DNA of 64,000 bases from an uncultured Haloplasmataceae bacterium (GCA_963824615.1 CAWGPU010000004.1:108852-172851), one strand, 5' to 3'. Positions 39,007 through 53,742 are shown, numbered from the stretch's first letter. Translations and numbers: made by a program. Notes: generated by a model not told the origin, from the sequence alone.

Positions 39007-39576
39007 ATGGACAAAGAAAGAATCGAGAAAGCAGTAAGGGAGATACTTGAAGCGATTGGTGAAAATCCAAATAGAGAGGGATTAATTGATACACCTAAAA
39101 GAATAGCTAATATGTATGAAGAAATTTTTTCGGGTCTAAATGAAGATCCTCGAAAACACTTGAAAATATTCTTTCAAGAAGAACAACATGAGGAAATGGT
39201 TTTAGTAAAAGACATATCGTTTTATTCTGTATGTGAACATCATTTAGTGCCGTTTTTTGGCAAAGTGCATGTTGGTTATTTACCAAAGGGTGGTAAATTA
39301 ACAGGATTAAGCAAATTGGCACGAGTAGTTGAAACGGTTTCTAAAAGACCGCAAATTCAAGAAAGATTGACGACAACGATTGCTGATGTATTAATGGAAG
39401 AATTGACACCATATGGTGTTATCGTTGTTGTTGAAGCAGAACATATGTGTATGACTATGAGAGGTGTTAAGAAACCAGGGTCACAAACGGTTACCTCGGC
39501 AGTAAGAGGATTATTTAACAAAGATGCAAAAGCAAGGGCTGAAGCGATGTCACTAATTAATTTTGGACGCCATTAA
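39007..39576 (+). CDS. folE: GTP cyclohydrolase I
   Basis: The conserved [10 protein letters not shown]...GKVHVGYLP...LSKLARVV and QERLT motifs are present. Confidence 0.9.
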
Positions 39577-39588
39577 TAGGGGGTAAAA

Positions 39589-40437
39589 ATGAGAGGTATT
39601 GATTATAGAATCCAACGAAGAGTAGATTTACAATGTGGCCCATACCTGCTTGAATTTGGGAAAAGAACTTATATAATGGGGATATTAAATGTAACACCAG
39701 ATTCTTTTTCAGATGGTGGTGACTTTACTGATTTAGAGGAAGCGATTCATCATGCGAAAGAGATGGTTTCAGACGGTGCCGATATTATTGATATTGGTGG
39801 AGAATCAACAAGACCAGGAGCAGCTTTTGTGAATAGTGAGGTAGAACTAGAACGTGTTTTACCCGTGTTAAAAAGATTGGTTAAGGAAATTAAAGTACCC
39901 ATTTCAGTTGATACATATAAAGCTAGTGTCGCTAGGAAGGTTTTAGAAGCAGGGGCACATATCATTAATGATATATGGGGTTTACAAAAAGACCCTGAAA
40001 TAGCGAATGTTATTGCCGAGTATGAGGTTCCTGTTATCATTATGCACAATAGAATTGATACCGAATATAAAAATGACATTATGGAAGAAATTGTCACCTT
40101 TTTTAATCAGTCCATTTCTATTGCTTTAAACGCTGGTATAAAAGCGAATAATATCATTTTAGACCCAGGTATTGGATTTGGAAAAACCCTTGAACAAAAT
40201 ATCATTGTGATGAAGCGATTAGGTGAATTAAATGATTTAGGTTATCCTATTTTATTGGGGACATCAAGAAAATCATTGATAGGCAAAACATTGAACTTGC
40301 CTCCAAAAGAAAGAGTAGAGGGAACTTTAGCGACAACGACTATGGGTATTATACAAGGAATTGACATTGTGAGAGTTCATGATATTAAAGAAAATATTAG
40401 AGTAGCTAAATTCACAGATAAGATTATAAGAGGTTAA
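39589..40437 (+). CDS. folP: dihydropteroate synthase
   Basis: Contains the GILNVTPDSFSDGG pterin-binding start, DIGGESTRPGA and GTSRKS. Confidence 0.9.
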   Translation: MRGIDYRIQRRVDLQCGPYLLEFGKRTYIMGILNVTPDSFSDGGDFTDLEEAIHHAKEMVSDGADIIDIGGESTRPGAAFVNSEVELERVLPVLKRLVKEIKVPISVDTYKASVARKVLEAGAHIINDIWGLQKDPEIANVIAEYEVPVIIMHNRIDTEYKNDIMEEIVTFFNQSISIALNAGIKANNIILDPGIGFGKTLEQNIIVMKRLGELNDLGYPILLGTSRKSLIGKTLNLPPKERVEGTLATTTMGIIQGIDIVRVHDIKENIRVAKFTDKIIRG

Positions 40438-40441
40438 TCAA

Positions 40442-40807
40442 ATGGATAAAATTTTAATGAAAAATTTATCGTTTTATGGTTATCATGGAGTACTTAAAGA
40501 AGAAAATCGATTAGGTCAAAAGTTTTTTATCGATATTGAATTATTAACGGATTTAAAAGTTGCTGGTAAATCAGATGATGTTTCCGACACCATTAATTAT
40601 GCTGCTGCCTTTGAATTAGTTAAAATTATCGTTGAACAAAATAAATTTAATTTAATTGAAGCGTTAGCTGAAACAATCGCGAGTTCAATTCTTTCCACTT
40701 ATTCTAAGGTTTTAGAAGTAGTTGTGAAGATACGGAAACCAGAGGCACCAGTAAATGGAATTTTCGATTATTTTGGTGTCGAAATAAGGAGAATGCAAAA
40801 TGTCTAA
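40442..40807 (+). CDS. folB: dihydroneopterin aldolase
   Basis: Contains FYGYHGVLKEENRLGQKFFIDIEL. 121 aa. Confidence 0.85.
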   Translation: MDKILMKNLSFYGYHGVLKEENRLGQKFFIDIELLTDLKVAGKSDDVSDTINYAAAFELVKIIVEQNKFNLIEALAETIASSILSTYSKVLEVVVKIRKPEAPVNGIFDYFGVEIRRMQNV

Positions 40808-41285
40808 AGTTTATATTAGTATAGGTAGCAATATGGGAGATAAGCAAGGACATCTAGCTAAAGCGGTACAATTATTAAATATGCATGATGCAATTACCGT
40901 GATTAAAGAGTCTGCTTATTATGAGACACTACCTGTGGGGTATACCGACCAAGAAAATTTTATCAACCAAGTGATTGAATTAGATACCATTTTATCCCCT
41001 GATGAATTATTAGATTATTGTCAATTGATAGAATTTCAATTAAAAAGAAAAAGAGAAATCAAATGGGGACCACGTACAATTGATTTAGATATCTTACTTT
41101 ATGACAATCAAAAAGTACATAATGAAAGATTAATTATTCCACATCCACGAATGATTGATCGTGCTTTTGTCATGGTTCCGTTATATGAAATAGCTCCAGA
41201 ACTCACAATTTTCAATCAAAACATTAACCAAATTATAGATAATTTACAAAAAACAATTTCTGAAAATATTATAAAAAAACTTTAA
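40800..41285 (+). CDS. folK: 2-amino-4-hydroxy-6-hydroxymethyldihydropteridine pyrophosphokinase
   Basis: Contains YISIGSNMGD...WGPRTIDLDILLY. Overlaps the folB stop. Confidence 0.85.
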   Translation: MSKVYISIGSNMGDKQGHLAKAVQLLNMHDAITVIKESAYYETLPVGYTDQENFINQVIELDTILSPDELLDYCQLIEFQLKRKREIKWGPRTIDLDILLYDNQKVHNERLIIPHPRMIDRAFVMVPLYEIAPELTIFNQNINQIIDNLQKTISENIIKKL

Positions 41286-41301
41286 AAAATATAAATAAAA
41301 A

Positions 41302-41332
41302 ATGCCTAAGTGAATACTTAGACATTTTTTAT
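41302..41332 (+). terminator. rho-independent terminator after folK
   Basis: gcctaagtgaatacttagac followed by tttttt. Confidence 0.5.
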
Positions 41333-41722
41333 TAGGAGAAAAGAGATAAGAGAGGAAAAAAGTTTTATAAAGATTAATCATAATAGAAAATATGCTTTGA
41401 TGACAATCTTTATTATAAACTTGAATACACGCATCAATATCGTACAATTATGAGAGATTATGTGATGAATTAAGCAGTTTGCAATCTTCCACAATTATTT
41501 TCGTTAGGTAATTAATACTTCTCTTTTTCCAAATATTCGTGTAATGATGACTTAGCGACTATGGTGTGAAAGAAGATATACAAGCTACAAGGGAACAGGT
41601 ATCAGTTGTATCTCGTAAAATATCGTTAGTGGTATACATAAATATAAATAAAAGAAATGAAAATCCGACAATTTGTAAATAATGTATAGTAGAGGATGCA
41701 GTACAATAATAATTGTCATACT

Positions 41723-41884
41723 CAAATAAAAAAAAGATGATTGAGGGAATCATCAAAATAAAAAAAAAGATGATTGAGGGAATCATCAAAATAAAAAAAA
41801 AGATGATTGAGGGAATCATCGGAATAAAAAAAAGATGATTGAGGGAATCATCGGAATAAAAAAAAGATGATTCCTTGAATCACC
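41723..41884. repeat. tandem array of five ~33-bp units, each a 7-bp-stem hairpin (GATGATT-GAGGG-AATCATC) with an A9 or T9 run
   Basis: Four perfect copies and one degenerate copy. The spacers are identical (AAAATAAAAAAAAA or GGAATAAAAAAAA). On the minus strand each unit reads as hairpin plus T9. Confidence 0.85.
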
Positions 41885-41962
41885 TTAGGTTGAAGTATTT
41901 TCTCAAAGAATATTATACCATACTATAGATGAAAAAAAAAGTCTAAAAAAATTATTTTTCCA

Positions 41963-42012
41963 TTGACCAACTCAGTCAATTATAATATAATAAAATTGAC
42001 CACAAGAGTCAA
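41963..42012 (+). promoter_or_regulatory. two palindromic operator-like sites TTGAC-N7-GTCAA (41963-41979, 41996-42012) flanking a TATAAT box
   Basis: ttgaccaactcagtcaa TTATAAT ataataaaa ttgaccacaagagtcaa. Both are perfect 5-7-5 inverted repeats 24 bp upstream of the tetR GTG start. Confidence 0.5.
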
Positions 42013-42035
42013 AAATAAAGAAAGGAAGGTTTTAA

Positions 42036-42653
42036 GTGTACACTAATTTTTTAAAAATAAGTGTTGAAAAACAGAATAGAATTATTAACGCCTGTATTAA
42101 AGAATTTTCTTTAAATGGTTATGATAATGCATCTACGAATGAAATTGTTAAAGAGGCTGGTATATCAAAAGGGTTGCTTTTTCATTATTTTAAGAACAAG
42201 AAAATGTTATTCTTTTATATTTATGATTATGCTATAAATTTTTATGTAAAATACTTTTATGATAATTTTGATTTTAGTGAAACAGATTTATTCAACAGAT
42301 TTCAAATTGCCTTGAAAATGAAATCAGAAATTATCGGAGATTATCCATTATTTTTTAAATTTTTAGAAAAAGTTTACTTTGAAGATGCAGCGGAGGTAAA
42401 AAATGAATTAATTGAGAAGAATAAGGATATGATACAATTCAGTTGGCGAATCTTTGAGAATATAGATACTTCAAAATTTAGAGAGAATTTAAATTTACAA
42501 CAGGCGGTAAATGTTATTTCTTGGACTATTGAAGGAATAGAAAATAAATTTACAAAAGAAGTCAAGTTAACTAAGAAAGCTATTGACTATCAAAAAAGTT
42601 TCGATGAGGTCAAGGAATATATTGAATTATTAAAAAAAATTTTTTATAAATAA
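42036..42653 (+). CDS. TetR-family transcriptional regulator
   Basis: N-terminal HTH NASTNEIVKEAGISKGLLFHYFKNKKML. GTG start with a GGAAGG RBS. Confidence 0.8.
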   Translation: MYTNFLKISVEKQNRIINACIKEFSLNGYDNASTNEIVKEAGISKGLLFHYFKNKKMLFFYIYDYAINFYVKYFYDNFDFSETDLFNRFQIALKMKSEIIGDYPLFFKFLEKVYFEDAAEVKNELIEKNKDMIQFSWRIFENIDTSKFRENLNLQQAVNVISWTIEGIENKFTKEVKLTKKAIDYQKSFDEVKEYIELLKKIFYK

Positions 42654-42664
42654 GGAGGAAAAAA

Positions 42665-43549
42665 ATGAACGTGATTGAAGTGAACAAATTAACGAAGTAT
42701 TATGGTGAAGAAAGGGGAATTATTGATGTTAGCTTTAATGTAAAGGAAGGCGAGATATTTGGGTTTATTGGACCTAATGGGGCAGGTAAATCAACAACGA
42801 TTCGTACTTTGTTAACATTAATTTACCCAACAAGTGGTAGTGCAACGATATTTGGGAAAGACTGTGTTCAATTTGCACCTGAAATTAAAAAGGAAATTGG
42901 TTATCTTCCATCAGAAGTATTTTACTATGATAACATGAAAGTGATTGATTTATTAAAGTATTCAGCAAGTTTTTATAAAAAAGATTGTAGTGAAAGAATA
43001 AAATATTTGTCAGAAGCCATGGATTTGGATTTAACGAGAAAAATTGATGATTTATCGTTTGGGAATAAAAAGAAAGTAGGAATAGTTCAAGGTCTCTTAC
43101 ATGAACCGAAACTTATTATTCTAGATGAGCCTACTAGCGGATTAGACCCTCTTATGCAACAAAAATTTTTCGAATTGCTTAAAGAAGAAAATAAAAAAGG
43201 AGCTACGATTCTTTTCTCTTCTCATATTTTAGGCGAAGTACAAAAGTTATGTGATCGTGTGGCAATTATTAAAGAAGGTCAAATTATTAAAATTGAAGAT
43301 ATGAAATCTTTCAAAGAAAATAATTATCGAAGAGTTAAAATTGAAACCAATGAAAAATTGAGTCAAGAATATTTTAATATGAACGGTGTCAATGATTTAC
43401 AAATTAAAAACAACGTAATTAGTTTTCTATATAAAGGAAGTATGAACTTATTAACTAAGAAAGTTTCTGAAATTAATATTTCTAATTTATGGATAGAGGA
43501 ACCTAACTTAGAAGAAGTATTCATGCATTATTATAAGAAGGGGGAATAG
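42665..43549 (+). CDS. ABC transporter ATP-binding protein (ABC-2 / bacitracin-type exporter ATPase)
   Basis: Walker A GPNGAGKST, signature-like SFGNKKKVGI and Walker B ILDEPTSGLD. Confidence 0.8.
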   Translation: MNVIEVNKLTKYYGEERGIIDVSFNVKEGEIFGFIGPNGAGKSTTIRTLLTLIYPTSGSATIFGKDCVQFAPEIKKEIGYLPSEVFYYDNMKVIDLLKYSASFYKKDCSERIKYLSEAMDLDLTRKIDDLSFGNKKKVGIVQGLLHEPKLIILDEPTSGLDPLMQQKFFELLKEENKKGATILFSSHILGEVQKLCDRVAIIKEGQIIKIEDMKSFKENNYRRVKIETNEKLSQEYFNMNGVNDLQIKNNVISFLYKGSMNLLTKKVSEINISNLWIEEPNLEEVFMHYYKKGE

Positions 43550-44349
43550 TGATGAATATTTTCAAATATGAGCTAAAAGCAAACGCTAAGTCGACTATAA
43601 TTTGGTTAGTTTCATTAGTGTTAGTCGTTTTCTTATTTATGTCAATATATCAAAGTTTCGCAAAAGATGCTCCTCAGGCACAGGATTTTCTTACAAGTTT
43701 ACCACCTGCAGCCAGAGCTGCATTAGGCATCAATATGGATACCTTCTTCACTGTATTGGGTTTTTATTCATTTGTATTTCTTTATATTGTATTAATTGGC
43801 GCAATCCAAGCAATGAATTTGGGATTGGGAATGTTGTCAAAAGAAACACGAGAAAAAACAGCTGATTTTTTGTTGACTAAACCTGTCACAAGACAATTTA
43901 TAGTTACTTCAAAAATGCTAGCTGCTTTAACTGCTATTATTATTACGAATATTGTCTTTCTTCTCATTTCTTATGTCATTCTTTTAACAATCCAAACGAA
44001 TAATTTTTCAGGTAAAATATTTTTTATGTTATCAATCACACTGTTATTTATCCAAATATTCTTCTTTGCAATCGGATTTATTTTATCTGTAGTTATTCCT
44101 AAAATCAAGACAGTAATAGCTATTTCTCTCCCAATCGTATTTGGATTTTTTATTATCAGTATGATAGGTTCTATTATTGGCGAAAAAGCTGTGCATTATT
44201 TGACTCCATTTGAATATTTTAATCGAGAATATATACTTGAGGCTGGGGCTTATCAACTGCGTTTTATTCTCATTGAAATGGTTATTGTCATTGGTCTAAT
44301 TTTTTCTACCTATTACATTTATACTAAAAAAGACATTCATTCTATTTAG
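43549..44349 (+). CDS. ABC-2 family transporter permease
   Basis: 6-TM permease overlapping the ATPase stop. Confidence 0.6.
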   Translation: MMNIFKYELKANAKSTIIWLVSLVLVVFLFMSIYQSFAKDAPQAQDFLTSLPPAARAALGINMDTFFTVLGFYSFVFLYIVLIGAIQAMNLGLGMLSKETREKTADFLLTKPVTRQFIVTSKMLAALTAIIITNIVFLLISYVILLTIQTNNFSGKIFFMLSITLLFIQIFFFAIGFILSVVIPKIKTVIAISLPIVFGFFIISMIGSIIGEKAVHYLTPFEYFNREYILEAGAYQLRFILIEMVIVIGLIFSTYYIYTKKDIHSI

Positions 44350-44361
44350 TAAGGAGGGAAT

Positions 44362-45153
44362 TTGATGAATATATTTTTAATTGAATTAAAAGCACATCGT
44401 AAACCACTAATTTTTTGGTGTTTAGGGATGATTTTAATGATTATCGCTGGAATGGGTAAATATGCAGCCTATAGAGGTGCTGGACAATCCATTAATACGG
44501 TGATGGAGTCCTTACCAAAATCAGTCGCTGCAATATTAGGTATCGGCAATTTTGATTTAACTCAAGCAACTGGTTTTTACGGGGTATTATTTATTTATTT
44601 ATTAATGATTGCAACCATTCATGCTACTATGTTAGGAGCTAATATGATTGCTAAAGAAGAACGAGATAAAACAGCTGAATTTCTATTTGTAAAACCTATT
44701 ACAAGATCAAATGTGATTACCGCAAAATTAGCGGCATCATTTGTTAATCTTGTCATATTAAATCTAGTTACCTTATTTTCATCTTTAGCTATGGTCGATT
44801 ATTATGGAAGTAACAATTCAGGAGATGTTTTATTATTAATGCTTGGGATGTTTATCTTACAAATTCTATTTTTAACTTTAGGTACAGCTCTCGCATCAAT
44901 CATGCAAAACCCTAAAAAAGCAGCTTCACTAGCAACAGGCATTTTATTAATTACCTATCTAATATCGGTAGTAGTTGATATGAGCACACATTTAGATTTT
45001 TTGAATTATTTCACGCCATTTAAATATTTTGCTGCTAGTAATGTATTCAGTAACGGAATATCAGTCATTTATGTACTACTTTCATTTGTTATAGTTGGCA
45101 TTTTCATCTATTTAACCTATTCACAATATAAAAAGAGAGATTTAACAATCTAG
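44362..45153 (+). CDS. ABC-2 family transporter permease (paralog of the preceding gene)
   Basis: The N-terminus is similar to the previous permease (MNIF..ELKA...K). 6 TM helices. Confidence 0.6.
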   Translation: MMNIFLIELKAHRKPLIFWCLGMILMIIAGMGKYAAYRGAGQSINTVMESLPKSVAAILGIGNFDLTQATGFYGVLFIYLLMIATIHATMLGANMIAKEERDKTAEFLFVKPITRSNVITAKLAASFVNLVILNLVTLFSSLAMVDYYGSNNSGDVLLLMLGMFILQILFLTLGTALASIMQNPKKAASLATGILLITYLISVVVDMSTHLDFLNYFTPFKYFAASNVFSNGISVIYVLLSFVIVGIFIYLTYSQYKKRDLTI

Positions 45154-45523
45154 TATGTTAAAATGAGATTTTCTGAAATGAGTTTATCTTTCAGAAAAAA
45201 TCAATACATCATAATATAAGAAAAAACATGTTTTTAATAACATGTTTTTTTCATCTGGTTTCAGTTGATTGTTTGTATCACTTTAATAATATTATACATA
45301 TAATTATCAAAGTGATATCATAAATATATGTTGATTTTGGAATGTTACTAGTTTTGTTTTGATTATTTAATGGATTGTTTTATAAATACTCTTAAATAAG
45401 ATATATGAACATATTCTGTATAATTGTTAGAAGATAATATTAAGAATATATGATTTGAATTGAGGAATCATATGGATTGGGATACTAAAAGATAGAAGTG
45501 GTTTCTAAATTTAAAGAAATTGT

Positions 45524-45553
45524 TTGACACAACGAAAGTTTACATTTATAGAT
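45524..45553 (+). promoter_or_regulatory. candidate sigma-A promoter TTGACA-17-TATAGA upstream of the crcB pair
   Basis: ttgacacaacgaaagtttacatttatagat. Confidence 0.35.
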
Positions 45554-45641
45554 TCAATTTTAATATTGAAATATAGTAAGTTTTGTTATAATATAAAAGG
45601 ACGTTGAAATAAATAGAAAAAATAGTAAAGGTGAAATAGAT

Positions 45642-46025
45642 ATGATATATCTTTCAATCGGATCATTTGGTATAATTGGTGCCTTATTACGGTATTATCT
45701 TGGGATTTCTATCCATGAATGGTGGGTATATTCGTTTCCACTAGGAACACTTCTAATTAATTATATTGGCGCATTTACTTTAGGATGGTTTACTTATAAT
45801 GTTGCTCATTTAAAAATTCCTGAATGGTTTCGTATTGGCTTTGCGACAGGGTTAATTGGTTCTTTTACCACTTTTTCAACATTTAGTGTTGAGACGGTGA
45901 ATTTATTAGATAAAGGATTAATTATATATGCTTTAGGGTACGTTGCCCTCAGTTTATTTGGTGGTTTAATGTTTCCTTTCTTAGGATACAGAATGTCTAA
46001 AGTTATCACTAGAGAGGGGGAATAA
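45642..46025 (+). CDS. crcB: fluoride ion channel CrcB/FluC subunit
   Basis: ~125 aa with 4 TM helices and the GFxGxFTTFSTF motif (GLIGSFTTFSTF). Confidence 0.8.
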   Translation: MIYLSIGSFGIIGALLRYYLGISIHEWWVYSFPLGTLLINYIGAFTLGWFTYNVAHLKIPEWFRIGFATGLIGSFTTFSTFSVETVNLLDKGLIIYALGYVALSLFGGLMFPFLGYRMSKVITREGE

Positions 46026-46029
46026 AGAC

Positions 46030-46398
46030 ATGATTTTAAATGGAGTATTGGTAGCTTTTGGAGCGTTCTTGGGAGCGACTAGTCGTTTCGCTGTCAGTAA
46101 ATGGATTGATAATAAAATGACTTCAAAATTCCCCTTTGGGACAATAGCAGTTAATTTATTAGGCTCATTTTTATTGGGTATTATTATCGCAAGTCAGGGA
46201 AATAATCAAATATCATTGTTACTCGGTACTGGTTTTATGGGGTCCTTTACGACTTTTTCGACTTTTAAAGTTGAAAGTATTAAATTAGGATTAGAAAAAC
46301 GATGGTATTTGTTATCAAGATATTTAATTTACAGTTACGGTTTAGGGATTGTTTTAGCGTTTTTCGGCTATTTTATTGGGAAACAACTCTATTACTAA
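46030..46398 (+). CDS. crcB: fluoride ion channel CrcB/FluC subunit (second paralog, heterodimer partner)
   Basis: Contains GFMGSFTTFSTF. 122 aa. Confidence 0.8.
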   Translation: MILNGVLVAFGAFLGATSRFAVSKWIDNKMTSKFPFGTIAVNLLGSFLLGIIIASQGNNQISLLLGTGFMGSFTTFSTFKVESIKLGLEKRWYLLSRYLIYSYGLGIVLAFFGYFIGKQLYY

Positions 46399-46446
46399 AT
46401 GACTTGTTTTATACAATAGTCTTAATATTACATGTTTAGGGAGGTT

Positions 46447-47154
46447 ATGATGGGTGATTTTATTAAATTGGACGGTGTTATTAAACATTATCAAATGGGT
46501 GAGGTAGAAGTAAATGCATGTGATGGAGTTTCTTTTAATATTCAAAAAGGTGAATTTGTAGTCATTGTTGGTCCTAGTGGAGCTGGGAAAACCACTGTTT
46601 TAAATTTAATTGGCGGAATGGACCAATGTGATAAAGGTAATATGGTAATTGAAAATAAAGACATTAGCCAGTATACAAAAAAACAATTAACTACTTATCG
46701 CCGAAATGATATTGGTTTTGTCTTTCAATTTTATAATTTAGTACCAAATTTAACTGCTTTAGAAAATGTAGAACTAGCAGCTCAAATATGTTCAAATTCT
46801 CTTGACCCCATTACTATATTAAAAGAAGTTGGTTTAGAGAACAGAATAAATAATTTCCCATCACAGCTTTCTGGTGGTGAACAACAACGCGTTTCTATTG
46901 CTAGAGCTTTGGCTAAAAATCCTAAATTACTGCTTTGTGATGAGCCAACTGGAGCATTAGATGATGAAACCGGAAAATCAATTTTAAAATTATTATATAA
47001 AACATGTAAAGATAAGTTGATGACAGTAGTTGTTATCACTCATAATCATGCTATAACTCCCATTGCTGATAGAGTCATTCAAATTAGGAGTGGAAAGGTT
47101 ATTTCGATTTTTGAAAATCTTCATCCACAGCCTGTTGAAAGGATTGATTGGTGA
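46447..47154 (+). CDS. ABC transporter ATP-binding protein (MacB/FtsE/LolD-like)
   Basis: Walker A GPSGAGKTT, Q-loop, signature LSGGEQQRVSIARAL and Walker B LLCDEPTGALD. GGGAGG RBS. Confidence 0.8.
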   Translation: MMGDFIKLDGVIKHYQMGEVEVNACDGVSFNIQKGEFVVIVGPSGAGKTTVLNLIGGMDQCDKGNMVIENKDISQYTKKQLTTYRRNDIGFVFQFYNLVPNLTALENVELAAQICSNSLDPITILKEVGLENRINNFPSQLSGGEQQRVSIARALAKNPKLLLCDEPTGALDDETGKSILKLLYKTCKDKLMTVVVITHNHAITPIADRVIQIRSGKVISIFENLHPQPVERIDW

Positions 47155-49607
47155 TGGTTAAAGCCTATACAAAAACAATCATCAGGCAAATTACATTTAA
47201 TTTCCATAGATACTTTTCCATCTTGTTAATAGTTGCATTAGGGGTCAGTTTTTATTCTGGTCTGCGTTCAACTAGTCCTAACATGCAAATAACCGCAAAT
47301 GATTATTTAAGTGATCAAAATGTGATGGATTTTAATATTGTATCTCAACTGATGTTTACGAGTGATGATGTACTTGCCATTAAAGAAAACCCTTTAATCA
47401 AAGGGATCATGCCTAGTTTTTATACCGAAGCGCAACTAGAATTAAATGATGCTAGTTTAACGGTAAATGTCCATTCGCTTGATACTAGTTTAAAAGGCAA
47501 TGATGAGAATAATATAAATCAACCCAATTTATTAAAAGGACGTTTTCCTGATACGAATGCCGAATGTTTGATTGATGAGAAATTAATGAAATCAGAAAAT
47601 TTCAAAATTGGTGACCAAATTACTTTAGCAGGTACAAATTTAAAAGCACCAATTTTAACAATCGTTGGAGTGGCGAACAGCCCATTATATATCTCTATTG
47701 AGAGAGGAGTTAGCTCAAACGGGGATATCAATGGTTTCATTTTAGTGAATCAAGATGCCTTTAATACACTTTACTATACGAATCTCTATGTGACTATAGA
47801 TAAAACAGGTCTTTCTCGCTTTTCAAAAGAATATAAAAATAAAATTCAGGCTGTTAAAAAGCAATTAGAAACTATAGGCGAAACTAGGAGTGAAATAAGA
47901 GCACAAGACTTGGGCAATCCAAATTTACCTTCGAAATGGATTATTTCAGATTTATTTCAAAATATTGGATTTAGTTCGTATTTAGATGATACACAACGAA
48001 TTTCGGCTGTAGGAAATGTCTTTCCTTTAATTTTCTTTTTAGTTTCCTCACTTGTCAGCTTAACATCTATGACAAGAATGGTTGAAAATGATAGGACAGA
48101 AATTGGAATTTTTAAATCATTAGGATATAGTCGTTTTGCGATAACACGAAAATATTTGTTTTATGCCCTGTCAGCCAGTATTATAGGTGGTGTCGCTGGA
48201 TTTCTAGTTGGAGTAAATTTATTTCCCAAAGTTATATTTAATGCCTATGGTATTTTGTATCACTTGATGCCTCTTGAAATTAGTTTTAGTTATTCACTTG
48301 CGATTACCTCAATTCTTGCAGCCATCCTAGTTATAACGATACCAGCTTATTTCGCTTGTTTACGAAGTTTTGTTTCTTCTCCAGCCAATTTAATGAGACC
48401 TAAAGCTCCTGACCCAGGTAAAAGAATATTTCTGGAAAAAATAAACTTTTTGTGGACGCGATTAAAATTTATTCAAAAAGTCACTGCGCGTAATCTATTT
48501 AGATATAAAAAAAGGTTGTTAATGACAGTTATTGGAATCGCAGGATGTACCGCTTTACTATTAACAGGTTTTGGTTTACGTGACTCGATTAGTTCAATTA
48601 TTGACCGTCAATTTAAAGAAATAAGAACTTATGATGCAGAAATTTATTTAAATAATCATCTTACAAATGATTCATTAGCACAGTTCAAAAAGACTGTAAA
48701 GATAAACAGTATGGTTAAGGATACATTTTATATTGACCAAGAATCTTTAAAGATTAGTTATAAAGGAGTAAATAAAGACCTCTATTTAATTATCCCTGAA
48801 AATGCAACATCACTCAATTCATTCATCACATTAAGAACGCGTCTTACTCATGAGGATGTTAATCTCGATAATAATTCAGTTGTGTTAACTGAGAAAATAG
48901 CCACACTTTTAGGCATTCATATAGGGGATACTATTACACTAGAAAATAATCAGTACCAAATCGTAACGGTAAAAGTATCCGGTATTGTTGAGAATTATCT
49001 TTATCATTATGTCTATATGTCACCGCAATTGTACGAGTCGTTATTTAATCAAACAGTACACTATAATGTTTTATTAACGAAACTAACGAATACAAGTGAT
49101 AGTGCTGAGAAACAGTTGGGAAAAGATTTTACAACCGAATCTCAAGTTCAAACGGTACATTTTATTTCCCAAATAGAATATCATTTTAATAATATGATCA
49201 GCACATTAAATGATGTCGTATATGTTTTAATTATTTCAGCTGCACTGCTTGCATTTTTAGTGTTATTTACCTTAACGAATATCAACATCGATGAACGAAA
49301 ACGAGAGTTAGCAACGATAAAAGTATTAGGATTTTATGATAAAGAGGTGTCCTCTTATATATACCGTGAAAACTTTATACTCACCTTTATTGGTATTATA
49401 GCGGGATTAATATTAGGGTATTTTCTACTTCATTACGTAATAGTCACAACAGAAACAGATATTGTGATGTTCTGCCGTAATATTAGTTGGATGAGTTACA
49501 TTAACGCGATTGCCTTAACATTTGTTTTTGCGATAATAGTAAATGTGATTATGCATCTAAGAATTCATAGAATTGATATGATTGAATCATTAAAAAATGT
49601 CGAATAA
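47154..49607 (+). CDS. ABC transporter permease with two FtsX-like domains (MacB-type)
   Basis: ~818 aa with duplicated 4-TM FtsX modules separated by large extracytoplasmic domains. The start overlaps the ATPase stop. Confidence 0.7.
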   Translation: MVKAYTKTIIRQITFNFHRYFSILLIVALGVSFYSGLRSTSPNMQITANDYLSDQNVMDFNIVSQLMFTSDDVLAIKENPLIKGIMPSFYTEAQLELNDASLTVNVHSLDTSLKGNDENNINQPNLLKGRFPDTNAECLIDEKLMKSENFKIGDQITLAGTNLKAPILTIVGVANSPLYISIERGVSSNGDINGFILVNQDAFNTLYYTNLYVTIDKTGLSRFSKEYKNKIQAVKKQLETIGETRSEIRAQDLGNPNLPSKWIISDLFQNIGFSSYLDDTQRISAVGNVFPLIFFLVSSLVSLTSMTRMVENDRTEIGIFKSLGYSRFAITRKYLFYALSASIIGGVAGFLVGVNLFPKVIFNAYGILYHLMPLEISFSYSLAITSILAAILVITIPAYFACLRSFVSSPANLMRPKAPDPGKRIFLEKINFLWTRLKFIQKVTARNLFRYKKRLLMTVIGIAGCTALLLTGFGLRDSISSIIDRQFKEIRTYDAEIYLNNHLTNDSLAQFKKTVKINSMVKDTFYIDQESLKISYKGVNKDLYLIIPENATSLNSFITLRTRLTHEDVNLDNNSVVLTEKIATLLGIHIGDTITLENNQYQIVTVKVSGIVENYLYHYVYMSPQLYESLFNQTVHYNVLLTKLTNTSDSAEKQLGKDFTTESQVQTVHFISQIEYHFNNMISTLNDVVYVLIISAALLAFLVLFTLTNINIDERKRELATIKVLGFYDKEVSSYIYRENFILTFIGIIAGLILGYFLLHYVIVTTETDIVMFCRNISWMSYINAIALTFVFAIIVNVIMHLRIHRIDMIESLKNVE

Positions 49608-49632
49608 ATAAAAAAATGGATGGTGTCAAACG

Positions 49633-50190
49633 ATGAAAAAAATATATCCGAATTTCTACAATTTAGAACCAATGCCGACAGAAGAGGGATATATCTTGCT
49701 TAAATGTCTCAATTGTCAGGAAATATGGTTATATAATGCGACTGATTTAAAAAAGACAGACAGAAAATGCCCTTATTGTGGAATGCTTCATACATTAGAT
49801 GAATATTATCAAGCAGCTTATGAAGATACATATCATTATTACCATATGATAGCAGTGAAAAATTTATTAGAACTTATCAATATTAAGATAGAGATTACTG
49901 AAAATGCAACAGAGGAAAAACAAAAAAGGTTCCAAGTGATATTTATTAATATTCCGCAACCTAATGAAAAAGAAATGAATGATTATGTCCAATTTGCATA
50001 TCAAGAATTAAAGAAAAGGGCAGATGAAAAAACTTTAGAAATAGAAATGAAAGTTCCTGTTTATATGCAACAAATGCTAAATGAGGATGATTTCATAGAA
50101 TTAAGGACAGACTGTTGTGAAAGCCTGTTAAAAGTAAAAAAAGGTCATGAATTAATAAAACATTGTGTTTATTGTAATTCTGATTTATAA
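49633..50190 (+). CDS. hypothetical protein with two CxxC pairs (putative Zn-ribbon)
   Basis: CLNCQ...CPYCG in the N-terminal part and C...CVYCN in the C-terminal part. Confidence 0.4.
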   Translation: MKKIYPNFYNLEPMPTEEGYILLKCLNCQEIWLYNATDLKKTDRKCPYCGMLHTLDEYYQAAYEDTYHYYHMIAVKNLLELINIKIEITENATEEKQKRFQVIFINIPQPNEKEMNDYVQFAYQELKKRADEKTLEIEMKVPVYMQQMLNEDDFIELRTDCCESLLKVKKGHELIKHCVYCNSDL

Positions 50191-50469
50191 ATATTAATGA
50201 TAATTAAGCCACCAGTTTTGCTGGTGGCTTTCATTTATTGAACGATAATTTTTTTATTTATCTTACATTTATATTAAGTGACATTATCAAACCTTCATTT
50301 AATCCTGTTTAAGAAACCACAATCTTCTATTTTTAAACCATTCAATGAGATAGGTAAATAACATATTGTTCTTTTTTTATCCATAAATGAATATCTTTAA
50401 TTATTGAAATGGAAAAAATCCATCAGTATAAAGAGATGGCTTTTTTTGACTTGAATTGGGTGATATAAA

Positions 50470-51801
50470 TTGAATGGATCATCATTTTATAAAAAATCAA
50501 CATTACTTATATTAACAAATTTAACAACAGGTATATTAAGTTTTTCCTTTTCTGTTATTTTATCACGTAAAATTGGTGCTGAAGGAATGGGATTATATAG
50601 TTTAGTGCTTCCTATCAGTAGTTTACTTCTTAGTGTTATTTCAGGAGGATTATTAGTCGCTGTTTCAAAAGTCGTCGCAGAATATTATTTCAAAAGAGAA
50701 ATGAATAATTTGAAAAAAATTATCAAGACAACCCTGATTTTTAATATCATATTATCTCTTTTTGTCATTTTTTTTGCTTACTTATTTTCTTACCAAATAA
50801 GTATATATATAGTTAGAGATGCACGGACTGTTTATGCGCTGCGATTTATCTTTATTTCAATCGTTGTAATGACACTGTCAAATACTTATAAAGGTTATTT
50901 TTATGGAACTACTAATGTGAGCGTCCCTGCTTTCATAGATATTGTGGAAAAAGCGGTTCGGATAATTTTTTTATTAATCATCTTTAAAATGACTTTTGTT
51001 TCGAGTATAACAACTTCAATAACAACCGCCTATTTAGTATTTTTTATAGGTGAATTAACATCATTGATTTTATTATACATATATTTTAAGTTAGATATTA
51101 AACTCTTAAAAAAAACAAATGAAAGAATTGAAGATGGTCTACAATTGCTTTACAATATTTTTTCAATTTCCTTACCTTTAATGATCACTGAATTAATTTC
51201 TTCTTCTCTATTTACAATCTCTTCACTTATTTTACCAAGAAGATTACTAAAGGCGGGTTTTAATTATAACGAAGCACTGGCATTAATTGGTCGTTTTGCT
51301 AGTATGTCCATGCAAATTGTCTTTTTTCCAATGGTTATTATTTTTTCGATTACAACGATTCTAATTCCTGATTTATCGAGGAGTGTCAGTCAAAATGATA
51401 TTTATTCAATTGAAAAGAGAATTTCTCAAGTATTAAAAATCTCTTTTTTATTAGGTGTATTTGTTTTTATCATCTGTTTTATATTTGGAAATGATTTAGG
51501 TAGAATCGTTTATCAACGTGATGATTTAGGTCAGTACATCCGTTTTATGGCATTTAGTGCACCATTAATCTATACATCCGCTACAACGCGTGGTATTTTG
51601 AATGGTCTTGGAAAACAGAAAATAATTTTAAAATATTCTTTACTTATTTCAGTATTACAAGTTGTTTTACTTTATATTTTAGTCGCAATTCCACAAATTA
51701 ATATATTTGGTTTTGGAATTACCATCATATCAACTACATTCATATCATTATTCTTTTATATAAGAGAAATCAATAAAGAAATTCAAATAAAAATCTTTTA
51801 A
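50470..51801 (+). CDS. MOP-superfamily polysaccharide/lipid II flippase (SpoVB/MurJ-like)
   Basis: 443 aa with about 12-14 TM helices. The N-terminal pattern KKSTLLILTNLTTGILSFSFSVILSRKIGAEGMGLY is typical of SpoVB/Wzx-type proteins. Confidence 0.55.
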   Translation: MNGSSFYKKSTLLILTNLTTGILSFSFSVILSRKIGAEGMGLYSLVLPISSLLLSVISGGLLVAVSKVVAEYYFKREMNNLKKIIKTTLIFNIILSLFVIFFAYLFSYQISIYIVRDARTVYALRFIFISIVVMTLSNTYKGYFYGTTNVSVPAFIDIVEKAVRIIFLLIIFKMTFVSSITTSITTAYLVFFIGELTSLILLYIYFKLDIKLLKKTNERIEDGLQLLYNIFSISLPLMITELISSSLFTISSLILPRRLLKAGFNYNEALALIGRFASMSMQIVFFPMVIIFSITTILIPDLSRSVSQNDIYSIEKRISQVLKISFLLGVFVFIICFIFGNDLGRIVYQRDDLGQYIRFMAFSAPLIYTSATTRGILNGLGKQKIILKYSLLISVLQVVLLYILVAIPQINIFGFGITIISTTFISLFFYIREINKEIQIKIF

Positions 51802-51883
51802 TGAAAACGAATACATTACTATTGTTTATTAAATTATGGTAAAATTATAGGAAATAGATAAATTGAAAAGAGGAAAGATATTT

Positions 51884-52621
51884 ATGAAAGGTCTAGAATT
51901 ATTAAAATTACCTACTTTAAATCCCTCATTCATAGTGTGGCCAACACTTCTTTATGACGAGAATCATGTGATTTTAGTTGACTGCGGTTATCCTGGGACT
52001 TATGAGGAGTTAAAAATGGTGTTATTAGATAAAGGATTTTCTTATGATGATTTAACACATATCATTATTACACATCATGATATAGATCATATCGGTAATT
52101 TAAGTACAATCATAAAGCATCATCCTGAGATTAAAGTCTTAGCAAGTTATATTGAAGCGCCATATCTTACAGGCAATAAAGAACCCATTAAATTATCCCA
52201 AAAGGGATATTATGATAACCTAATGCAAACTGTAGGTCTGTTGCCCTCTCCTAAACGTGAACTTGTTAAAGAAGTAATAGAAAATTTAATAATTAATCAG
52301 GTCACAGTTATACATGACAATGAGCTATTACCATTTTGCGGGGGAATCAAAGTGATTTATACACCAGGTCATACACCGGGCCATGTTTGTTTATATTTAG
52401 AAAGCTATAAAACCCTTATATCAGGAGATGAATTAAATGTCGTAGAAGGGATATTATATGGTCCCAAACCTCAATTTACTCAAAATATGACAACAGCAAT
52501 AGAATCTTTATCCAAAATAGTTAAAAATGATATACGTTCAATTTATTGCTATCATGGCGGAATTTATCAAGATAATCCTAATTTACGAATTATACAATTA
52601 TTAACAATTGATGAATATTGA
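51884..52621 (+). CDS. MBL-fold metallo-hydrolase
   Basis: HHDIDHIGN fits the HxHxDH zinc motif, with downstream His and Asp residues. AAGAGGAAAG RBS before the ATG at 51884. Confidence 0.7.
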   Translation: MKGLELLKLPTLNPSFIVWPTLLYDENHVILVDCGYPGTYEELKMVLLDKGFSYDDLTHIIITHHDIDHIGNLSTIIKHHPEIKVLASYIEAPYLTGNKEPIKLSQKGYYDNLMQTVGLLPSPKRELVKEVIENLIINQVTVIHDNELLPFCGGIKVIYTPGHTPGHVCLYLESYKTLISGDELNVVEGILYGPKPQFTQNMTTAIESLSKIVKNDIRSIYCYHGGIYQDNPNLRIIQLLTIDEY

Positions 52622-52680: not shown

Positions 52681-52854
52681 CTAAAGTAAAATGAGTAATA
52701 ATAGTATCCCTAAACCAATCAGTGCCCAGTACCATGGTCTAAAAAAAAATCTTCTACCGAAACAGCACCAAGGTCTATAAGGATAGCCATACCATGGTCG
52801 AAATCTTCTATAGTAACCGTATTGTGCAAAAATTCCCATTCTCCTCCACCACAT
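52681..52854 (-). CDS. small Tyr/Arg/Pro/Trp/Cys-rich protein with hydrophobic C-terminal tail (57 aa, MWWRRMGIFAQYGYYRRFRPWYGYPYRPWCCFGRRFFFRPWYWALIGLGILLLLILL)
   Basis: AGGGGTGA RBS 5 nt upstream. It is paralogous in composition and motif (CCFGRR / CGCFGRF, hydrophobic tail) to the 53010-53192 product. It is below the ORF track cutoff. Confidence 0.4.
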   Translation of the reverse strand: MWWRRMGIFAQYGYYRRFRPWYGYPYRPWCCFGRRFFFRPWYWALIGLGILLLLILL

Positions 52855-53009
52855 ATAATCACCCCTTATCTATAGTAGTATATGTTTTTAGGTACAATTT
52901 TCTTGTATTAACCGCCCCTTAATATTTAAATAATGTTTTTATCTTTGATGAATTTGACCTATTTAGATAAAAGACTCTATTCTATTTTAGAATGGAGTCT
53001 TTCAGCTTA

Positions 53010-53192
53010 TTAAATGAAACCGAAAAGTAACCCTAAACCAATACCCGTTGCGAAGCCATATCCACCACCAAAGCCAAAGCCACCATACCCGAATCTTCCA
53101 AAACAACCGCATGTAGGTCTACAACATATAGGTCTACAGCATATAGGTCGACAAATAGTTGGGCAACATCTTCTGTATCCGTAATATCCCAA
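53010..53192 (-). CDS. small Cys/Pro/Gly/Tyr-rich protein with hydrophobic C-terminal tail (CRPICC x3 repeats)
   Basis: TTG start preceded by AGGAGGTG. Repeats CCPTICRPICCRPICCRPTC are followed by a GYGGFGFGGGYG stretch and a hydrophobic tail. Confidence 0.4.
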   Translation of the reverse strand: MGYYGYRRCCPTICRPICCRPICCRPTCGCFGRFGYGGFGFGGGYGFATGIGLGLLFGFI

Positions 53193-53349
53193 GTTAACAT
53201 CACCTCCTGTATCTTTTATATGTTAATATATGATGAAACTCATTTTCAAGAATGTATAATACTCCTCTTTCTAAGTAAAATAATCATTATATAACAGGTA
53301 CATTTAGGAAAAAACTATAAAAAAAAGAGGTAATGTTCTATTACCTTCT

Positions 53350-53742
53350 TTATTGTTTAAAGAAATTACGAAATAAATTTCCATAACCTAATATGTTTTG
53401 TAGATTATTAGGTCCAAAACCATAGGGTTGATGTTGATTATTGATATGATTGAATTGACCTTGTTGGCTATATGGATTAAATTGACCAAATTGACCTTGA
53501 TGATTGTAAGGATTAAATTGATTATGATTATTATATGGATTAGATTGATTTTGATTCATAAATGAATGTCCTTGATTATACGGATTATAATTATTTTGAT
53601 TGTATGGATTCATATAAGGATTATTAAATTGATTCTGCATAAAGTTATTGTTACCGCCAAAAAATTGTTTCATCATACCTACACCACTTAGTAATGATTG
53701 AATGGTTCCCATATTTTTTAGCCCAAATGAAAGTAAATTCAT
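53350..53742 (-). CDS. Asn/Gln/Pro/Tyr-rich low-complexity protein (NPY/NQ repeats), putative spore coat/crust-type protein
   Basis: AGGAGGTAACAC before the ATG. The upstream minus-strand sequence ACattctaattacatttaaCATAccTTA fits the sigma-K consensus (AC-17-CATAnnnTA). Confidence 0.5.
   Translation of the reverse strand: MNLLSFGLKNMGTIQSLLSGVGMMKQFFGGNNNFMQNQFNNPYMNPYNQNNYNPYNQGHSFMNQNQSNPYNNHNQFNPYNHQGQFGQFNPYSQQGQFNHINNQHQPYGFGPNNLQNILGYGNLFRNFFKQ

Follow-up and report, generated by a model that had tools for sequence, protein, structure and literature searches.

A tandem array of five hairpin and T-run modules between folK and tetR in a Clostridia genome, a candidate strand-specific terminator minisatellite

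In a 64-kb stretch of bacterial DNA (hereafter the window), the folate-synthesis gene folK and a TetR-family regulator gene are separated by non-coding DNA that contains a short tandem array at positions 41723–41884. This raises the question of what kind of element such an array is and what, if anything, it does. An earlier note on this DNA had described it as five hairpin modules, each followed by poly-T on the minus strand, and had offered a multi-terminator or insulator, a slippage-prone minisatellite and a protein-binding array as possible readings. Its assignment of the flanking genes to FolK (HPPK) and a TetR-family regulator was confirmed. The organism belongs to a low-G+C Clostridia lineage (~29% G+C) without close relatives: the identity of its FolP to other proteins does not exceed 76%, named relatives such as Gottschalkia, Maledivibacter and Thermotalea lying at 70–76%, and that of its TetR does not exceed 51%.

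The TRF call and the parsing of the single units agree on five head-to-tail hairpin modules of 32, 33, 33, 32 and 32 nt, as had been proposed. TRF returned a period of 33, 4.6 copies and 96% matches with a score of 252, the highest TRF score in the window. Read on the plus strand, the units are CAAAT-A8-HP (41723–41754, 32 nt), AAAAT-A9-HP (41755–41787, 33 nt), the same AAAAT-A9-HP again (41788–41820, 33 nt), GGAAT-A8-HP (41821–41852, 32 nt) and GGAAT-A8 followed by a diverged hairpin, HP* (41853–41884, 32 nt). Here, HP denotes the 19-mer GATGATTGAGGGAATCATC, which occurs exactly four times with starts at 41736, 41769, 41802 and 41834, compared with a shuffle expectation of 0.03 matches at up to 3 mismatches. 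The fifth and rightmost hairpin, HP*, is GATGATTCCTTGAATCACC (41866–41884). Four perfect repeats of the unit had been claimed; the 19-nt palindrome is indeed exact in four copies, but the full 33-nt unit is exact in only two (41755–41787 and 41788–41820), and the exact segment common to four units consists of A8 plus the hairpin, 27 nt. Neighbouring hairpins are 13–14 nt apart, and the longest exact repeat inside the array measures 60 nt. With a head-to-tail unit of 10–100 bp and high identity between copies, the array falls within the definition of a minisatellite. The palindrome has a 7-5-7 symmetry and a spacing of 32–33 bp, the A8–9 tracts recurring at the same interval, and its loop, as previously read, has the plus-strand sequence GAGGG and the minus-strand sequence CCCTC.

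On the minus strand, every stem is directly abutted by U8 or U9, which is the U-tract expected of an intrinsic terminator. Module 5 (41853–41886) is the first that minus-strand transcription would meet. It consists of the fifth hairpin, AAGGUGAUUCAAGGAAUCAUCUU (41886–41864), followed by U8 and AUUCC; the stem has 10 pairs including three G-C pairs, a 3-nt AAG loop and an energy of about −9 kcal/mol, and the first two residues of the U8 (41865–41858) close the stem. Module 4 (41821–41852) consists of the hairpin GAUGAUUCCCUCAAUCAUC (41852–41834) followed by U8 and AUUCC. This hairpin, identical in all four HP copies, has 7 pairs, two of them G-C, a CCCUC loop and an energy of about −5.6 to −5.8 kcal/mol. 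Modules 3 (41788–41820, HP at 41820–41802) and 2 (41755–41787, HP at 41787–41769) are identical to each other, with U9 and AUUUU after the hairpin, and module 1 (41723–41754, HP at 41754–41736), the last in this direction, ends with U8 and AUUUG. The earlier note had given a T9 run to every unit; a T-run does abut every stem, but the runs are T8, T9, T9, T8 and T8. It had also regarded the fifth unit as degenerate, whereas on the minus strand this unit forms the best hairpin of the array. In addition, the fifth hairpin and the adjoining HP are 86% complementary over 21 nt, and together with module 4 the fifth hairpin can form a compound helix of 18 pairs (−20 kcal/mol) that is again followed by U8.

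When these hairpins are read on the plus strand, A-runs border them and a U-tract is absent. Their HP stems reach −7.3 kcal/mol there, with GAGGG(A) loops and A-rich linkers between them, and neither the terminator scan nor the fold energies revealed anything terminator-like 3′ of the array on this strand. A consensus terminator scan found three sites in the region compared with 0.3 expected, and the fifth hairpin is the only unit of the array that passes it. Since the gene-end terminators of the window span −7.3 to −16.9 kcal/mol (with T6–T8 runs), the fifth hairpin is typical of them in energy, while the four HP copies are sub-par, being weaker than every gene-end terminator found in the window, which counts against reading them as terminators. 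Their stems are weak but their U-tracts are optimal, and a G-C pair closes the stem beside the U-tract. The folding z-scores of the array are −7.5 on either strand; given the composition of the region, these values merely restate the repeated palindromes. The multi-terminator or insulator reading of the earlier note thus stands as far as the anatomy is concerned, which is terminator-like on the minus strand only and lies downstream of a promoter motif (see below), but the terminator function itself is predicted from these features.

Because the longest exact repeat is 60 nt, ordinary reads, or k-mers longer than 60, are enough to settle the number of copies. In an independent Logan short-read assembly of run ERR11594399, a contig (L001) is 100% identical over 39066–41753 and reproduces the left array junction exactly. 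The contig stops at 41753, one base short of the end of the first hairpin; by hand count, this break is where the first 30-mer common to the units begins, which fits a graph of k=31. A second contig of this run (L143) covers 42685–52025 at 99.925% identity, with 6 mismatches and 1 gap in 9.3 kb; the ERR11594399 assemblies contain the same organism and provide a second data set for the locus. The earlier note had named an assembly artefact of a homopolymer-rich region as what would overturn its description. With the left junction matched and the 60-nt repeat resolvable, the array is not obviously such an artefact, and assembly artefact is unlikely. The differences between A8 and A9 could be homopolymer errors. 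The broader reading, in which the array is an assembly or sequencing artefact or else lies inside a real protein-coding gene, draws on these possible homopolymer errors, on the source being a single 277-kb contig and on two open reading frames that cross the array (86 aa on the minus strand, 41 aa on the plus strand). We consider it very improbable. Apart from the agreement of the independent contig, the 86-aa frame and the peptides of all open repeat frames have no homologue in 1.84 billion representatives/5.8 billion clusters, and the 32-nt units break the reading frame, for which reasons a coding array was rejected. The 86-aa frame is also absent from the recorded gene calls.

To the left of the array, the folate operon folE, folP, folB, folK is encoded on the plus strand and ends at 41285, convergent to any leftward transcription. 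It is followed by a bidirectional terminator at 41294–41333 (with energies of −11.8 and −7.3 kcal/mol on the minus and plus strands, respectively). The stem of this terminator is perfect over 12 pairs on the minus strand only, which hints at some minus-strand transcript ending there. Right after it, at 41334–41362, lies the purine-only stretch AGGAGAAAAGAGATAAGAGAGGAAAAAAG with two Shine-Dalgarno-like motifs and no start codon at a usable distance from them; seen from the minus strand, the same stretch is rich in pyrimidines (CCUC/CUCC) and immediately precedes the terminator. The 390 nt between the folK terminator and the array contain no convincing open reading frame, resemble nothing else and show no excess of RNA structure, with z-scores of −0.3 and −0.5 on the two strands. 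The idea that the 750-bp spacer holds a repeat or the remnant of a pseudogene was rejected, since neither tblastn with the proteins encoded downstream in the relatives nor blastn against the remainder of the window gave a match.

To the right, the tetR gene (42036–42653) and an ABC-2 exporter gene (42665–45153) follow on the plus strand. What comes after folK in the nearest relatives (L138–L140) is either a DAHP-synthase/NeuB-like gene that overlaps or adjoins it, with a response regulator next, or a large sensor kinase. Here, synteny breaks at 41286–42035, where folK is followed by the 750-bp non-coding gap and then the tetR-ABC cassette. Since folK is followed by other genes in the relatives and the cassette is found elsewhere without the array, the spacer marks a lineage-specific junction. 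A single assembled genome has the locus, and none of the related genomes does. Further downstream lie two tandem crcB (fluoride channel) genes (45584–46398), with an extended −10 promoter only ~50 nt before them. At the gathering score, the 64 kb yielded neither a fluoride riboswitch nor any other Rfam family, and no tRNA.

A source of leftward RNA is suggested by a predicted orphan promoter on the minus strand, whose extended −10 element TATGGTATAAT (41912–41922) points into the array. The element fits TRTGnTATAAT, the full Firmicute extended −10, and is the sole match in the window, compared with 1.87 expected by chance. It lies 26 nt upstream of the stem of the fifth hairpin, on the strand where the modules are terminator-like. 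Its −35 is poor and not recognisable, a T-run occupying the place. The shorter pattern TGnTATAAT occurs 11 times in the window against 11.8 expected, that is, at chance level. Seven of these 11 sites are intergenic, intergenic DNA making up 22% of the window, and most sites of the intergenic type lie 22–54 nt upstream of gene starts on the same strand. Their intergenic, start-proximal placement therefore makes the pattern a useful promoter marker in this window. Because the motif counts are at chance and the −35 is poor, we only infer the orphan promoter.

From its predicted start site at ~41905–41903, 18 nt before the fifth hairpin, transcription would yield an orphan transcript of ~45–50 nt (41856–41904, minus strand). 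Predicted by combining the promoter motif with the first terminator, this transcript would consist of an 18-nt unstructured 5′ end, the fifth hairpin and U8; read-through would add modules 4 to 1. The orphan-transcript region has no open reading frame and no Rfam match, and no site complementary to the predicted 18-nt 5′ end was found elsewhere in the window. The TetR operator palindromes described below also give −35/−10-like matches on the minus strand. No minus-strand open reading frame lies between the tetR promoter and the array, and none is encoded in 41886–42035. From 42036 to 52621, all genes are on the plus strand, and the nearest upstream minus-strand coding sequence lies beyond. Three small, unusual proteins are encoded in a minus-strand cluster at 52681–52854, 53010–53192 and 53350–53742. 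Two of the three have 57–60 aa, are rich in Cys, Gly, Tyr and Arg and end in hydrophobic C-terminal tails, one of them with CRPICCRPICCRPTC repeats; the third (130 aa) has repeats rich in Asn, Gln, Pro and Tyr and no Pfam match. The cluster at 52681–53742 may be spore-coat-like, and the TRF repeats at 53110–53154 and 53453–53601 are coding repeats of these genes.

The tetR gene itself has a promoter, TTGACC-17-TATAAT, at 41963–41991 (11/12 match). Two palindromic predicted operators overlap this promoter, TTGACCAACTCAGTCAA at 41963–41979 and TTGACCACAAGAGTCAA at 41996–42012, 33 bp apart, so that the pair covers the −35 and the start site. A TTGAC-N7-GTCAA pair with a distance of 32–33 bp also precedes tetR in two homologous cassettes (L141, 1005–1053; L142, 3416–3465), both without a hairpin array. 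Motif and spacing are thus kept where TetR is only ~50% identical, and it is likely that the dual-operator design is conserved in this TetR subfamily. The array cannot be upheld as the binding site of the adjacent TetR, one form that a protein-binding array could take, since the predicted operator of this regulator is conserved in cassettes that have no array; as a TetR operator array it was rejected, its sequence being unlike the conserved operators of the homologous cassettes. The hairpin centres (41745 to 41875) and the operator centres (41971 and 42004) do share one lattice of ~32.6 bp. Because the operator spacing is conserved in the cassettes without an array, this match between the periods of array and operators is most likely a coincidence.

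The palindrome was then sought outside the array. In the window, GATGATTGAGGGAATCATC at up to 3 mismatches occurs only in the array, apart from one chance-level match inside a gene. An exact scan of one genome per species over 185,579 species revealed no array of it and 16 single matches, all in unrelated sequence context. The earlier note had warned that the unit might turn out to be a common REP-like element; dispersed copies were found neither in the window nor in these species genomes. No flanking inverted repeats or target duplication surround the array, and with no other copy in the window, no array in the species genomes and no flanking terminal repeats, a dispersed element of REP or MITE type was rejected on these data, a low-copy family in the rest of the source genome being conceivable. 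Viral contigs gave 0 matches, and a plasmid or phage origin was rejected as blastn against plasmids and phages found no match. The uniqueness of the array argues against a dispersed-element or protein-site family. A metagenome scan used a loop-degenerate pattern, too loose to inform on close relatives; it returned at least 120 generic AT-rich hairpin loci, and among the matches listed none had a GAGGG/CCCTC loop or an array. One metagenome contig (L041, WNGA01185296.1) contains, at ~370–1634, more than 1.2 kb of degenerate tandem modules of 26–28 nt and 51 nt, in which an ATCAT...ATGAT hairpin is followed by a T-run. With 10–17 copies (TRF), this is a far longer hairpin-plus-T array; its stems and those of the unit in the window are unrelated in orientation.

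Rfam gave no match at the gathering score in the whole window and only noise at E≤10 in 41200–42100, and a known RNA family was rejected, with no CsrB/Rsm- or RsaE-type match on either strand. In a test for a sponge of the CsrB/RsmZ type, the plus strand has GAGGG(A) loops, no terminator, a 9/12 promoter and no Rfam match. In the corresponding test for RsaE/RoxS, the minus strand has UCCC in four loops and the covariance model of the family was not matched. That the array is not CRISPR, as the earlier note had argued, is borne out by its 13–14-nt intervals, which are near-identical A-run sequence and not unique spacers; Rfam returned no CRISPR repeat family for the window. We do not place the array in the REP, CRISPR or operator-array class or in any Rfam family.

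The best explanation of these observations, to which we give about an even chance of being right, is that the array is a recently amplified, strand-specific intrinsic-terminator minisatellite that would stop leftward transcription from the orphan promoter. According to this model, the extended −10 promoter (41922–41912, minus strand) would start an RNA ~18 nt before the fifth hairpin, and the divergent −35/−10-like sites overlapping the TetR operators are a possible further source of leftward RNA. Most RNA polymerases would halt at the fifth hairpin and release an RNA of ~45 nt, while those that escape would face four more stops. With this first stop and its four backups, almost no antisense RNA would enter the folE-folP-folB-folK operon. 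The extra copies may owe their presence to selection for a stronger insulator, or they may be neutral. The near-identity of the units is due to their youth, so that the common hairpin and U-run are no evidence of selection; furthermore, the good bidirectional terminator that already stands at 41294–41333, on the folK side of the array, leaves no obvious need for extra insulation.

The copies themselves would have arisen by replication slippage or by unequal recombination between units made of an A-run and a palindrome. On the minus strand, the module ends read, in order, ATTCC, ATTCC, ATTTT, ATTTT and ATTTG, neighbours being most alike, and these spacer subtypes suggest a stepwise duplication of neighbouring units. 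Together with the 60-nt exact repeat, this gives the structure of a young minisatellite, and the minisatellite option of the earlier note is well founded in this respect. HP and the fifth hairpin differ at five positions in direct orientation and at three when one of them is flipped; it is a matter of speculation that the hairpin loop was inverted before the amplification.

It is possible, if doubtful, that the array is a silent minisatellite, in which a hairpin and a homopolymer were amplified by slippage in a non-essential rearrangement spacer that no transcription enters. The terminator likeness would then be a relic, for example of the orphaned terminator of a deleted minus-strand gene. 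Runs of A8–9 and palindromes are classic slippage substrates, and the array is built of both. The locus is lineage-specific, with other genes after folK in the relatives and the tetR-ABC cassette elsewhere without the array, the near-identical young units bear no sign of selection, and the promoter is a motif match at chance frequency. However, the extended −10 lies on the right strand and at the right distance, and any leftward transcription, whatever its origin, would be acted on by a stem that abuts U8–9. If leftward RNA is made, it might instead act as a modular small RNA, with nested minus-strand isoforms that partial read-through of the weak terminators would yield and whose one to four identical UCCCUC loops would pair with Shine-Dalgarno-like GAGGGA. 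The loop and its closing bases, UUCCCUCA, are present in four copies, a promoter motif lies upstream and the region has no open reading frame; moreover, UCCC in unpaired regions of Firmicute small RNAs (staphylococcal RsaE and RNAIII) targets ribosome-binding sites (PMC2790875), a weak likeness that speaks for this reading. Nevertheless, we regard it as improbable: the fifth hairpin with its U8 should end most transcripts before any C-rich loop is made, no Rfam family including RsaE matches at E≤10, there is neither conservation nor a target in the window, and the pyrimidine loop of one young unit is a single observation copied four times. A shade more improbable is a copy-number-tunable variant, in which a leaky terminator series behind the orphan promoter would produce multivalent anti-Shine-Dalgarno isoforms. 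If it were true, repeat expansion or contraction would alter regulatory valency.

Two further readings dispense with the minus-strand RNA. The array could act at the DNA level, either as 19-bp palindromic sites about three helical turns apart for a dimeric protein or as phased A-tracts that bend the DNA upstream of the tetR promoter. The 7-5-7 palindromes and the A8–9 tracts, both at 32–33 bp, and the lattice of ~32.6 bp shared with the TetR operators would suit such an element. It is nonetheless a long shot, because the TetR operator differs in sequence and keeps its spacing in cassettes without the array, a further copy of the palindrome is absent from the window and any counterpart of the array from other genomes, and the RNA reading, unlike a protein site, accounts for the T-run that abuts each stem. 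Finally, the plus strand might encode a sponge RNA whose four GAGGG(A) loops would bind CsrA or a C-rich small RNA. The GGA loops on hairpins of −7.3 kcal/mol, joined by A-rich linkers, have the appropriate form, but this reading is hardly credible: no convincing promoter lies just upstream (the best is TTGTCA-17-GATGAT, 9/12), no plus-strand terminator follows the array, no CsrB/Rsm-type Rfam match was obtained at E≤10 and there is no conservation.

If the terminator minisatellite model is true, the locus would be a natural five-fold, strictly one-directional transcription barrier made by simple repeat amplification. It would show the rapid silencing of a stray promoter that a rearrangement left antisense to an essential folate-synthesis operon, and would offer a compact natural design for a polar insulator. 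Its practical weight is modest, as the element occupies one locus in one uncultured Clostridia lineage, has no relatives and gives no sign of a new mechanism. The locus is a local curiosity and not a new kind of genetic system.

A comparison with known systems places the array between several classes. Its partly palindromic repeats and regular period of ~33 bp resemble a CRISPR array, which it departs from in having only five units, the same A-run in its intervals and no unique spacers. Like REP elements and BIMEs, its palindrome is extragenic, can form RNA hairpins and can influence transcript 3′ ends; REP elements, however, are dispersed in hundreds of copies, whereas in the window this one occurs in the array only. 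With RsaE/RoxS and RNAIII it shares several UCCC hairpin loops on one RNA strand, beside a terminator, but it matches no Rfam family in sequence or structure, its loops lie behind a strong first terminator, and it has no conservation or known target. Mycobacterial VNTRs of the MIRU type are intergenic minisatellites found at many loci per genome. The BrickBuilt element of Porphyromonas gingivalis is likewise an intergenic minisatellite, with a 23-nt unit, present at many loci within a MITE with terminal inverted repeats (PMC4596501). The array resembles both in the head-to-tail repetition, between genes, of a unit of a few tens of bp, in its dyad symmetry and in its presumed origin by slippage or unequal recombination. 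It differs from them in being single-copy in the 64 kb, in having no flanking inverted repeats and in that its unit is a complete terminator module.

Tandem terminators and hairpin clusters, both of them common, are also among the closest known systems. WebGeSTer DB lists 100,364 U-shaped terminators among 977,173 best terminators, and U-shaped tandem terminators have hairpins less than 50 nt apart (PMC3013805). The hairpin clusters of Gupta and Pal (2021) have less than 15 nt between hairpins, lie at most ~80 nt downstream of a stop codon, and drop exponentially in frequency with hairpin number (PMC8355165). With hairpins 13–14 nt apart on one strand and a U-tract after each, the array has the spacing of both classes and would likewise act in series, but its placement does not follow a stop codon. 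Known tandem terminators do follow a stop codon and usually combine two unrelated hairpins, whereas here five near-identical copies result from repeat expansion and are preceded by no gene, only by the predicted orphan promoter. The locus combines two known kinds of element in one place: it is a minisatellite whose unit is a whole terminator, situated behind a predicted orphan promoter.
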